DNA of 64,000 nucleotides from Apteryx mantelli. Its lineage: Eukaryota. The position numbers and the translations under genes were made by a program. Numbering within the stretch: position 1 is the stretch's first letter; every line of letters starts with the position of its first letter. Below are positions 60,200 to 62,835 of the stretch, in pieces. Under the pieces are notes generated by a model that did no database searches, had not been told where the DNA came from, and saw only the letters and a list, made by a program, of their open reading frames with translations. The stretch is taken from assembly GCF_036417845.1 (NCBI RefSeq), contig NC_090015.1:64001-128000 (forward strand), in the 5' to 3' direction.

Positions 60200-61085
60200 C
60201 GGTTCGGGGGGGCAATTGAGGGGCAATTGGGGGGGGCTGGGGGCAGTTTGCGGGGGGGCTTCGGGCGCGCGGGGCGGGTCGGGGGCAATTGGGGGGGTTT
60301 AGGGGCCCTTTGGGGTCTTTAGGGGCAACTGGGGGGGGCAATACGGGGGTCTGGGGGCAGCCGGGGGGGTAATTGGGGACCGGGGGGGGCATTTGGGGAG
60401 CTCTGGGGGTGTCGGGGGGGGAATTGGAGGCTCTGGGGGGCAGTTAGGGGACCCTGGGGGGCAATTGGGGGGGCTGGGGGGCAATTGGGGGGGTCTGGGG
60501 GCAATTGAGGGGGGCTGGGGGGCATTTGGTGTCTCTGGGGGGGGGCTGGGGGGGCAGTTAGCGGCTCCAGGGGGTAATTAGGGGCCGTCGGTGGGGGGAG
60601 GGGGGTCTGGGGGGCAACTGGGGATCCCAAGGGGCAGTTAGGGCCTTTGTGGGGGTGGGGGGAGCTACGGGGGGGGGGCAGTTAGAGCATCTGGGGGGGG
60701 CAATTGGGGGGAGCTGGGGGGGGCAGATAGGGAGCCGGGAGGGGCAGTTATGTGGTGGTGGTGGGGGGCAATTAGTGGGATGGGGGGGTAACTGGAAGGG
60801 GGGGAGCCGTGCTGTCCCGGGGGGGGCTATAAGGGGGCAGTTGTGTGGCAATTAGCACCCGGGGGGGGGCAATTAGCACCTGGGGGGGGCAATTAGCACC
60901 TGGGGAGGGGGGCAATTACCCCCCCCACCCCCCCCCCGGGCGGCCATTTTGCAGCCCTGAGCAGCTCAAACCAGGGGAAGCAACTAGCGGTTGCCGGTGG
61001 AGAAGGGGGGGGCAATTAAGGCGTGGGGTAATTAAGGCGTGGGGCAATTAAGGGGGGGTAATTAACGATTAATTGCCCCCCCGGG
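60200..61085. repeat. ~20-24-bp G-strand array (ggggggcaattgggggggctg / ggggcaattaagg) in PPP4C intron 1 (5' UTR intron)
   Basis: gggcaatt[ga] repeated about 30 times. Confidence 0.85.
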
Positions 61086-61094
61086 GGCAGGGCC

Positions 61095-61192
61095 ATGGGG
61101 GAGCCGAGCGACCTGGACCGGCAGATCGAGCAGCTGCGGCGCTGCGAGCTCATCAAGGAGAGCGAGGTGAAGGCCCTCTGCGCCAAGGCCAG
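61095..61192 (+). CDS. PPP4C: Serine/threonine-protein phosphatase 4 catalytic subunit, coding exon 1
   Basis: [32 protein letters not shown](R) versus human [33 protein letters not shown]. Upstream acceptor ggcag|ggccATG at 61089-61090; donor ag|gtaccc at 61193. Confidence 0.9.
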
Positions 61193-61320
61193 GTACCCCC
61201 GGGGGGGGCAATTAACCCCCCCCACCCTGCCGCAGGGGCAATTAACCCCCCCCCCGGAGGGAGGGGAGGGGGGGCAATTGAGCTAACGAGGCGCCGTCTG
61301 TCCGTCCGTCCTTCCTGCAG

Positions 61321-61372
61321 GGAGATCCTGGTGGAGGAGAGCAACGTGCAGCGGGTCGACTCGCCCGTGACG
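61321..61372 (+). CDS. PPP4C: PPP4C coding exon 2
   Basis: cctgcag|g; (R)EILVEESNVQRVDSPVT is identical to human; donor acg|gtgagc. Confidence 0.9.
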
Positions 61373-61500
61373 GTGAGCGGGGGGCAATTAACCCCCCCCC
61401 AGGGGGGCAATTAGACCCCCAGGGGGGTAATTAACCCCCCAGGAGGGCAATTAACCACCAGGGTGGGGGTATTTATACATATTTGCCCCCCCCCCCCCAG

Positions 61501-61551
61501 GTGTGCGGCGACATCCATGGGCAGTTTTATGACCTCAAGGAGCTTTTCCGG
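61501..61551 (+). CDS. PPP4C: PPP4C coding exon 3
   Basis: ccccag|gtgtgc; [17 protein letters not shown] is identical to human; donor cgg|gtgagt. Confidence 0.9.
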
Positions 61552-61554
61552 GTG

Positions 61555-62835
61555 AGTTGCTCCCCCCACTAATTGCCCCCCCGGCTTAATTGCCCCCCCC
61601 GGCTTAATTGCCCCCCCTCCAGCCTAATTACCCTCTTCAGTATTTAATTGCCCCTTCCCAGTTCCTAATTACCCCCCCAACCGCTCGTTCCTTCTCTAAT
61701 TGCCCCCCAGGTTCCTAATTATTACACTGATTTTTAACTGTGCCCTCTTAATTGCCCCCCTTTAGTTGTTCTTTATCTTTAATTGCCCCCCTTAATTGCC
61801 CCCCCCCGGGCCTAATTGCCCCCCCCCGGGCCTAATTGCCCCCCCCGGCCACTAATTGCCCCCCCTAATTGCTGCCCCGAGTCCTGATTCTTCCCGTGGG
61901 TTCTATTTGCCCCCCAGCTCCTAATTGCCCCCCAGCTCCTATTAATTGCCCCCCCAATTGCTTGTCTTGTTGCTCCTGGTTTTTAATTGCCCCCCTCCCC
62001 TTAATTGCCCTGCCTGGGCCTAATTGCCCCCCCAACTGCTAATTGCCCCCCTAATTGCTCCCCCCATCCTGAATTACTGTTGTTGCCCCCAATTGCCCCC
62101 CAGCTCCTAATTGCCCCCGTGGATTTGCCCCCCCTGCATGCACCTAATGGCCCCTTAATTACCCCCCCTGGTTCCTAATTACCCCCTGATTACTGCTTGA
62201 TTACCCCCAGTCCGTAATTGCCCCCGCTAATTGCCCCCCAACCCCTATTTGCCCCTTCAGTTGTTCTCCTGGCCCTTAATTGCCCCCAATTACCCCCCAT
62301 AATTGCCCCCCCCGGCCCTAATTGCTCCTTGGGCATAATTATCCCTGTAATTGCTCCCTCTGATCACTAATTGCCCCCCCTTGGCCTTAAATACCCCCCC
62401 CAATTGCTTTCTCTGGCTCTAATTACCCCCCTAATTGCCCCCAATGCTTAATTGCCCCCCACAATTGCCCCGTAGCCCCTAATTACTTCCTTAATTACCC
62501 CCCCAGCCCCTAACTGCCCCATTTAGCCCCAAATAAGCTTCTAAATTGCCCCTGGGGTCCCTAATTGCCCCTCTAATTGCTCCATAGCCACTAATTACCC
62601 CCCCCAGAACCCCAAACAACCCCCCTAATTGCCCCCCCGGCCCCTAATTGCCCCCCACAGCCCCTAATTGCCCCCCCGACCCCCAAACAGCCTCCCGAAT
62701 CGCACCCGAGCTGCCCTGTTTGCCCCCCGCCGGCCCTAATTACCCCCCCAACTGCCCCCCCGCAGCTCCTAATTGCCCCCCCACCTCCTAATTGCCCCCC
62801 TGCAGCCCTAATTGCCCCCCCTGTCTCTAATTGCC
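61555..62835. repeat. C-strand array (cctaattgcccccc / ttaattgcccc, 12-30-bp units, ~45 copies) in PPP4C intron 3; reverse complement of the intron-1/2 arrays
   Basis: Direct reading: taattgcccc recurs throughout; ggggcaatta is essentially absent after 61552. Confidence 0.85.

Follow-up and report, generated by a model that had tools for sequence, protein, structure and literature searches.

Complementary minisatellite arrays of opposite orientation flank a 51-nt exon of PPP4C in kiwi and other birds

We analysed a 64-kb window of the Apteryx mantelli (kiwi) genome (contig NC_090015.1, positions 64,001 to 128,000, forward strand), which contains ALDOA and, 3' of it on the same strand, the first exons of the phosphatase gene PPP4C. 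The subject is a pair of tandem arrays that occupy the PPP4C introns on the two sides of a 51-nt coding exon in opposite orientations. The GC content is 72% across the window, and tandem arrays make up most of it. ALDOA is complete (43387-58863, eight coding exons, 364 aa), and its protein is identical to XP_067170996.1 of A. mantelli. The ALDOA-PPP4C order matches that of human 16p11.2, with synteny kept. The orthologous ostrich and emu records are chromosomes of 4.8 Mb and 3.3 Mb, respectively, and the locus appears to lie on an avian dot chromosome, a placement that is indirect for the kiwi window. The five PPP4C coding exons in the window are 86-95% identical to human PPP4C in tblastn; all are intact and have canonical GT/AG borders. 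Coding exon 3, the 51-nt exon, encodes the first of the metal-binding motifs in PPP phosphatases, GDIHG, and is kept in all orthologues, including those from a ruminant and a gecko. The sequence was read over 59000-64000, and tandem repeats were located with Tandem Repeats Finder (TRF). The features of PPP4C are as follows (5'UTR, 5' untranslated region).

59961-60186, + strand: putative PPP4C promoter/CpG island with non-coding exon 1, placed by conservation upstream of PPP4C
~60187-61090, + strand: 5'UTR intron (i1), G-strand units G6-8-CAATT[AG] or CAGTTA; G 52%, GC skew +0.50
60920-61000, + strand: non-repeat island within i1, read from the sequence
61052-61082, + strand: 14-bp hairpin GGGGGGGTAATTAA-CGA-TTAATTGCCCCCCC, eight bases 5' of the i1 acceptor
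61091-61192, + strand: start-codon exon, ATG at 61095 (coding exon 1, 61095-61192), 94% identity to human PPP4C (tblastn)
61193-61320, + strand: intron A (iA), 128 nt, three + units G8-CAATTAA-C8, each a potential hairpin
61321-61372, + strand: coding exon 2, 52 nt, from tblastn and pattern mapping
61373-61500, + strand: intron B (iB), 128 nt, four + units, 3' end ATTTGCCCCCCCCCCCCCAG
61501-61551, + strand: coding exon 3, 51 nt, 17 residues, AG/GT borders, PPP4C match
61552-62842, + strand: intron C (iC), 1291 nt, nearly all C-strand units [CT]TAATTG-C5-9; C 44%, GC skew -0.55
62843-62944, + strand: coding exon 4, 102 nt, from tblastn and pattern mapping
62945-63882, + strand: intron D (iD), a (GGGAGGGGGCCCAGGCGTCC...)n array throughout
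63883-64000, + strand: coding exon 5, running off the window end

A first-pass annotation of this stretch had described mutually complementary arrays that switch strand at the 51-nt exon, and both motif and hexamer counts bear this out. With at most one mismatch, GGGGCAATT has 102 matches in the 64 kb, compared to 7.99 ± 2.48 (maximum 15) in dinucleotide shuffles, and 95 of the 102 fall within 60209-62837. The 5' side of the exon has 38 copies in + orientation (60209-61452) and three in - orientation (60914, 61071 and 61481), and the 3' side (61571-62837) has none in + and 54 in - orientation (Fisher p = 2e-23). All 18 strict copies of GGGGCAATT are upstream, and 35 of the 36 strict copies of AATTGCCCC are downstream. 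The core AATT is palindromic, and orientation was therefore rechecked with non-palindromic hexamers. The ratio of CAATTA to TAATTG was 12:2 upstream and 0:38 in iC (p = 4e-10). Since these hexamers also switch strand, the inversion of orientation across the 51-nt exon is real.

Some details of that description have to be revised. The arrays do not have an 11-nt period: TRF finds periods of 16-21 nt, with variable spacers and a 79-96% match over i1 and iC. G-strand arrays had been assigned to all upstream introns, which holds for the 5'UTR intron but not for the two 128-nt introns, where there are only three to four units each, every unit has both a G-run and a C-run, and the GC skew is about 0. 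The real contrast is thus between i1 (skew +0.50) and iC (skew -0.55). Inverted 10-mer sharing between these two is 0.26-0.27, while direct sharing is 0.02 and 0.12 in the two directions. They form 93 inverted pairs, the best being complementary over 38 nt at 92% and over 48 nt at 85%, spacers included. A large diverged palindrome with mirror-ordered units was considered and rejected: 14-mers gave a weak trend (r = -0.22), and a block permutation with 12-mers gave r = -0.04 (p = 0.29). For the idea that the units serve as homeodomain sites, we find nothing beyond the letters TAATTG.

Is the arrangement peculiar to kiwi? Orthologous loci, consisting of ALDOA with 10-kb flanks that reach PPP4C, were collected through matches to the bird ALDOA protein, from parrot, wrentit, eagle, black swan, two penguin assemblies, frogmouth, ostrich, emu, cowbird, gecko and crane. 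Seven birds cover both sides of the 51-nt exon: kiwi, emu, ostrich, swan, penguin, parrot and crane. PPP4C of the eagle is mostly Ns, and the wrentit and cowbird loci stop before the exon. A protein search with a 140-aa PPP4C fragment returned mostly short cDNA-like fragments lacking genomic context. A ruminant outgroup came from a contaminant contig, the sole match in a metagenome scan for the 51-nt exon with its splice borders. The first-pass annotation named a lack of the inverted arrangement at orthologous loci as grounds for refutation, and within birds this check turns out in its favour, with the arrangement kept in seven of seven bird loci: the motif is exclusively in + orientation 5' of the exon and in - orientation on its 3' side, and the GC skew ranges from +0.31 to +0.73 in i1 and from -0.39 to -0.66 in iC. 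The CAATTA/TAATTG family itself occurs in four of the seven (kiwi, emu, ostrich and swan). Penguin and crane have the variants CAGTTA/TAACTG and CAAGTG, and parrot has TATGGGG/CCCCATAAG. Among palaeognaths, 8-mer sharing of iC is 0.32-0.59, and the iD motif GGGGCCCAGGCGTCC is common to kiwi, emu, ostrich and penguin. Introns A-D of gecko PPP4C (91-388 nt) contain no arrays, and neither does the 214-nt ruminant intron 3' of the 51-nt exon. The split between palaeognaths and neognaths is the deepest among living birds, at roughly 100 million years. Because seven birds have the polarity, and gecko and ruminant lack arrays, the architecture is, judging from these sequences, bird-wide and older than that split. 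The wrentit has, at 22065-31955, the same loci with far more AT-rich arrays, (GGGGAATTTT)n, (TCATTTTGGG)n and (GCTAATTAACG)n, in which the TAATTA core is retained and the G- and C-runs are shrunken.

In dot-chromosome genes, introns have undergone massive tandem expansion on a local scale, which has been named "sequence stuttering" (Hron et al., 2026; PMC12954441). Tandem repeats account for >70% of dot-chromosome intron sequence, with G-quadruplexes (G4s) on the coding strand of the introns (bioRxiv 10.1101/2025.10.17.683159). The PPP4C arrays resemble this phenomenon in several respects: they lie in a housekeeping gene, apparently on a tiny GC-rich bird chromosome, the intronic units are imperfect tandem repeats of tens of bases, intact exons bound the arrays, which may include copies of sequence from beside splice sites, G4 motifs lie on the coding strand, and the outgroups examined here have no arrays. 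They differ in that the published blocks are isolated in single introns, whereas in PPP4C one family occupies several introns in both orientations. Orthologous introns of related species were reported to differ in repeat structure and sequence, and independent expansion was suggested (PMC12954441). The arrays examined here are not as divergent between species as that suggestion predicts, with motif and polarity common from kiwi to swan, emu and ostrich included, and polarity found also in penguin, parrot and crane. Conservation across birds, as read from these loci, thus conflicts with independent expansion in each species. Arrays that are inverted or complementary come up in neither PMC12954441 nor bioRxiv 10.1101/2025.10.17.683159. 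Stuttering as such is established; its arrangement in inverted, gene-specific pairs, and the retention of these across living birds, appear to be undescribed in the literature searched.

If pairing between the two arrays were under selection, their sequences might be expected to change together, and we find no species-specific co-variation among the bird loci compared. The reverse complement of kiwi iC shares 8-mers with the upstream arrays of kiwi, emu, ostrich and swan to the same extent (0.44-0.45 each), so that sharing across species is as high as within species. The A/T cores drift independently on the two sides, with CAATTA vs CAGATTA in swan and TCTAT vs CACTTAT in parrot. Kiwi has the closest arm-to-arm similarity among the birds compared. 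As far as array sharing can tell, the pattern fits common descent and not compensatory change.

ALDOA provides a parallel case. The inverted arrangement had been presented as a device of the 51-nt PPP4C exon, which it is not, as two ALDOA exons carry like flanks.

46801-50851, + strand: 55-nt ALDOA exon (49172-49226) between an intron with a G-strand GGGGACATGG-type array (46801-49171) and one with a C-strand CCATGTCCCC-type array (49227-50851)
52203-58767, + strand: 200-nt ALDOA exon (55212-55411) between an intron with a C-strand array (52203-55211) and one with a G-strand array (55412-58767)

Every ALDOA intron of more than 800 nt is a tandem array, and array orientation changes at the 55-nt exon and changes back at the 200-nt exon. 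The GGGGACATGG/CCATGTCCCC family has its own motif: a 10-mer comparison of all non-coding segments found no array motif common to ALDOA and PPP4C. Inverted 10-mer sharing in ALDOA is 0.11-0.22, compared to the 0.26-0.27 of PPP4C i1 and iC. The polarity of the ALDOA introns and several of their motifs (CACTGGGAG, TTGGGGACA and GTGTCCCCA) are common to swan, penguin, eagle, frogmouth and wrentit; polarities and motifs, including the opposite flanks of the 55-nt exon, are kept across seven birds.

On balance, we lean towards the view that the arrays are an ancient, inherited pair of intronic minisatellites of the dot-chromosome stuttering type, whose pairing potential is largely a by-product. The starting point would be a unit of roughly 18-21 nt in which CAATT[AG] comes after a G-run. 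This unit would have been amplified in the PPP4C 5'UTR intron, and its reverse complement, in which [CT]TAATTG precedes a C-run, would have been amplified some 50-fold in the intron 3' of the 51-nt exon. The seeds may have lain at the intron ends and grown in place through local slippage and template switching, a single inverted copy may have been made early in bird evolution, and both arrays would since then have been inherited and turned over in place. A very long G:C-rich duplex between the arrays could arise in the pre-mRNA and loop out coding exons 1-3. Normal splicing must nevertheless dominate in PPP4C and ALDOA, because the arrangement is fixed across birds in two essential housekeeping genes. 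The idea that iC began as the right-hand half of the G-CAATTAA-C unit found in iA and iB was rejected, as the orientation of the core is wrong. The notion that only inverted arrays are tolerated around exons was also dropped, since direct arrays of one family flank exons as well.

Several observations weigh against this view. The inverted-copy event and the origin of the seeds are conjectural, and a mirror-ordered palindrome was not detected. Complementarity is gene-specific in seven of seven species for the two genes compared. Inverted sharing between G-type and C-type introns was scored on 8-mers containing three or more A/T bases; within genes vs between genes it was 0.194 vs 0.017 in kiwi, 0.155 vs 0.026 in emu, 0.126 vs 0.038 in ostrich, 0.077 vs 0.021 in swan, 0.096 vs 0.028 in penguin, 0.090 vs 0.051 in parrot and 0.094 vs 0.023 in crane. 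The last ALDOA intron lies 1.4-4 kb from the PPP4C arrays and has no sharing with them. Because it is nearer to them than some ALDOA introns are to one another, plain distance is not an obvious cause of the gene-specificity, and the comparison may reflect a constraint acting on the transcription unit. Persistence of motif and polarity over about 100 million years also suggests more stability than expected of simple neutral turnover, and such sequence is reported to vary in length even among individual chickens.

The alternative that gives the arrays a direct role is a functional RNA bridge, in which pairing between them in the transcript as it emerges would loop out either coding exons 1-3 or the 51-nt exon. 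The outcome would be a circular RNA (circRNA) of ~205 nt with the ATG, or regulated skipping of the exon with the catalytic motif, in the manner of inverted Alus. Folding predictions bear on this. The RNAduplex energy of i1 with iC is -1163 kcal/mol. With dinucleotide-shuffled iC it is -987 ± 15 kcal/mol, and with unrelated C-rich arrays of the window, taken from ALDOA, it is -977 to -1033 kcal/mol. The predicted cognate duplex is thus 130-190 kcal/mol stronger than those with shuffled or non-cognate C-rich partners (z ~ -11). In the minimum free energy (MFE) fold of the unspliced region 60178-62946, there are 625 i1-iC pairs vs 35 within i1 and 45 within iC, so that predicted cross-intron pairs far outnumber intra-intron ones. 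A giant i1:iC duplex that loops out coding exons 1-3 would therefore be thermodynamically plausible, and the long imperfect duplex proposed at the outset is possible in principle. Its other side is that the MFE fold with shuffled iC still has 505-567 i1-iC pairs. Because that much of the pairing survives shuffling of iC, about 85-90% of it would be a matter of composition, a G-rich intron facing a C-rich intron.

The retention of opposite polarity around the 51-nt exon in seven birds, the like flanks of the ALDOA 55-nt exon in seven birds and the gene-specific complementarity in all seven speak for the RNA bridge. Against it stand the lack of compensatory co-variation of the arrays across species, and the cost that efficient looping-out would have in PPP4C and ALDOA, both essential and highly expressed. 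The G-runs are also likely to be occupied by G4s or hnRNP H/F and the C-runs by PCBP or hnRNP K, and splicing of i1 may precede transcription of iC. The first-pass annotation had proposed strong G4 potential for the G-strand intron, which agrees with the predictions for i1: its mean G4Hunter score is +1.45, 60% of its 25-nt windows score at least 1.5, and it has 11 non-overlapping canonical putative quadruplex sequences. The i1 of each of the seven birds is likewise a candidate. When the G4 option of ViennaRNA was used, 67 nt were placed in G4s and 541 i1-iC pairs were still predicted.

Skipping of the 51-nt exon would indeed be in frame, as had been pointed out, and would delete the GDIHG metal-binding motif. 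A search for peptides spanning the exon-skipped junction yielded two models without the 17 residues, one from zebra finch (UniRef, A0A674GFY6, 104 aa) and one from snailfish (TNN65048.1, 106 aa). Both read into the intron following the next exon. They probably represent a recurrent micro-exon annotation error, because the same truncated model arises in two unrelated annotations; conceivably, they are a conserved minor isoform. Their occurrence in snailfish as well as zebra finch points away from array-driven skipping, and the literature does not favour the RNA bridge either, as we found in it no circPPP4C and no paper joining PPP4C, circRNA and chicken. Taken together, we consider the RNA bridge unlikely.

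The position of units at splice sites raises another possibility, namely that the two arrays consist of strand-specific splicing elements selected separately, the G-runs as intronic enhancers or G4s after donors and the C/T-rich units as extended polypyrimidine tracts before the acceptors of very GC-rich introns. Complementarity would then follow near-automatically from a palindromic core (AATT, CATG) beside G-runs or C-runs. A C-type unit does serve as polypyrimidine tract at three acceptors, those of i1 (TTAATTGCCCCCCC...CAG), iB (ATTTGCCCCCCCCCCCCCAG) and iC, where the final unit reads CTAATTGCCCCCGCAG|G, and iC has 10 acceptor-like copies. G-type units start right after donors (GTGAGCGGGGGGCAATTAAC), and in penguin, crane and wrentit the intron A donor is G|GTAATTAAC. 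In i1, the 3' arm of the hairpin is the sole C-type unit near that end of the intron and doubles as the polypyrimidine tract; the hairpin has a predicted folding energy of -25.4 kcal/mol (z -2.2), and its sequence is nearly identical in emu. Intron B is predicted to fold end to end, with its first G unit pairing with the terminal C-run (-67.6 kcal/mol, z -2.3). Palindromic tetranucleotides lie within the cores of both gene families, and penguin, parrot and crane keep the polarity but not the exact motif. The placing of the units at splice sites, the palindromic cores and the kept polarity would suit separately selected elements. However, the non-palindromic flanks are inverted too, in the hexamer ratios given above, and units are complementary over 38-48 nt at 85-92%, spacers included. 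Furthermore, splice-site position does not explain unit type, since iC is C-rich straight from its donor and i1 is G-rich almost up to its acceptor. We regard this explanation as rather unlikely.

Splice sites may be relevant to the minisatellite account in another way, as the kiwi array units may derive from adjacent splice-site sequence. Clear copies of exon ends and splice junctions ("exon stuttering"), of the kind described by Hron et al., are seen in other birds. Parrot intron D (locus positions 19034 and 19190) has a copy of the acceptor together with the start of the following exon, cattgcag|gtgcgctaccc, and wrentit intron A (locus 28776-29260) repeats the end of coding exon 1 together with the donor (…gtcaaggcccGGTAATTAACG).

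Effects on DNA rather than RNA were also considered: intrachromatid gene conversion might homogenise the arms, arrays in the same orientation might be avoided as they would delete exons, or the skew switch might mark R-loop or replication features. Positive skew starts at the promoter, as in R-loop-prone CpG-island promoters, the arms are most alike in kiwi, and dot chromosomes are described as recombination-rich and unstable (PMC12954441; bioRxiv 10.1101/2025.10.17.683159). Yet arrays of one family and one orientation do border exons: coding exons 1-2 lie among the + units of i1, iA and iB, and four exons lie between the directly repeated GGGGCCCAGGCGTCC arrays at 59045-59960 and 62945-63882. 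Mirror order was not found either, and we consider a DNA-level element very improbable. The same two sources describe such GC-rich repeat regions as error-prone, so that an assembly or sequencing artefact comes to mind. We give this almost no credence: the architecture is repeated in seven independent assemblies, the exons are intact and the splice sites are all canonical.

How does PPP4C compare with known systems of this kind? In mammals, reverse-complementary intronic repeats such as inverted Alus are said to promote back-splicing and circRNA formation. PPP4C is similar in having complementary introns around a small group of exons, with cross-intron pairing predicted to outcompete intra-intron pairing. 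It differs in that its units are low-complexity G-run/C-run minisatellites and not 300-nt short interspersed elements, its pairing energy is mostly compositional, its G-rich arm could instead fold into G-quadruplexes, and it is not known to yield back-splice junctions. GC-skewed CpG-island promoters are reportedly prone to R-loops, and PPP4C shares with them a strong positive GC skew from the promoter through the first intron. In PPP4C, however, the skew is carried by a minisatellite, and its sign reverses in the fourth intron and again in the fifth. Intronic G-runs are also said to act as splicing enhancers in short GC-rich vertebrate introns, and hnRNP H/F and PCBP are tied to G-run and C-rich intronic elements. 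PPP4C has G-runs just 3' of donors and C-runs as acceptor tracts, but in ~40-50 copies over 0.9-1.3 kb that are reverse complements of each other including the A/T cores.

It is tempting to speculate that dot-chromosome genes of living birds carry gene-specific pairs of G-strand and C-strand minisatellites, and have held them in opposite orientation for ~100 million years because they pair in the pre-mRNA. We find this distinctly doubtful. If true, birds would have in such arrays their own equivalent of inverted Alus, with possible consequences for the splicing of exon clusters and micro-exons, for circRNAs, or for the neutralisation of G4s and R-loops. The published view is that intron expansion on bird dot chromosomes is recent, local and species-specific, while motif and polarity in ALDOA-PPP4C instead span the deepest split among birds. 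This raises the questions of how unstable arrays stay recognisable for so long, and why complementarity follows the gene and not distance. If the arrays pair in RNA, birds would have an independent route to long-range intron pairing. If they do not, the locus is a natural experiment in which essential genes are spliced correctly through kilobases of pairable G-rich and C-rich RNA.

The 5' end of PPP4C also has conserved elements outside the arrays. The promoter block contains two TGACGTCA sites resembling the cAMP response element (60001-60008 and 60045-60052), CTTCCGCTTCCG and CCGGAAGTGACGCGC (~60136-60150), and the putative exon 1 donor is CGGCCGG|GTGCGA at 60186/60187. The anchor GGAAGTGACGCG and the block GGTCGCGGCCG|GT are found again 5' of PPP4C in swan, penguin, parrot, ostrich, emu and crane, and it is by this promoter conservation that the transcription start site and exon 1 are tentatively placed. 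In every bird looked at, the promoter block is a conserved island of unique sequence between arrays. The non-repeat island at 60920-61000 had been proposed as an additional 5'UTR exon, which is possible; emu, ostrich, penguin and crane have a comparable non-array block at the corresponding position.

Other arrays fill the rest of the window. A 29.8-kb satellite (1-29795) has a 58-bp unit (TCTAGGGGGACCCGGGCGTCCGGGAGGGGCCCAGGCGTCCGGGGAGTCTCGCGTCACC) and higher-order periods of 116 and 174 bp. Its GGGGCCCAGGCGTCC core recurs as 19-21-bp arrays at 59045-59960, 5' of the promoter, and in iD (62945-63882), where family and orientation are the same as in the satellite; at 42757-43236 the family is in reverse orientation, so that both orientations are present in the window. 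A further pair of opposite polarity consists of (ACCCCAAATACCCCCCCAGG)n on the C strand (39718-40957) and, ~480 nt on, (GGCAGATTTGGGGCTGGAAA)n on the G strand (41434-42397), and inverted 10-mer sharing between these two is only 0.04. The array at 35114-37456 has a unit of 98-101 bp, 85% GC, and repeated GGGGCGGGGC (Sp1-like) boxes with CCATGAG. When TLCD3B (TRAM_LAG1_CLN8 domain), the gene upstream of ALDOA in other birds, was mapped onto 30-43 kb, only repeat-derived matches were obtained. When compared in translation, the kiwi arrays (GGGGCCCTATGGGTGCCCTATGGG...)n and (GGTCATGGTGGCACCTATG)n at 30141-31923 match the emu locus (1-3580), 5' of ALDOA, which suggests that array motifs in the gene 5' of ALDOA are also kept between palaeognaths.

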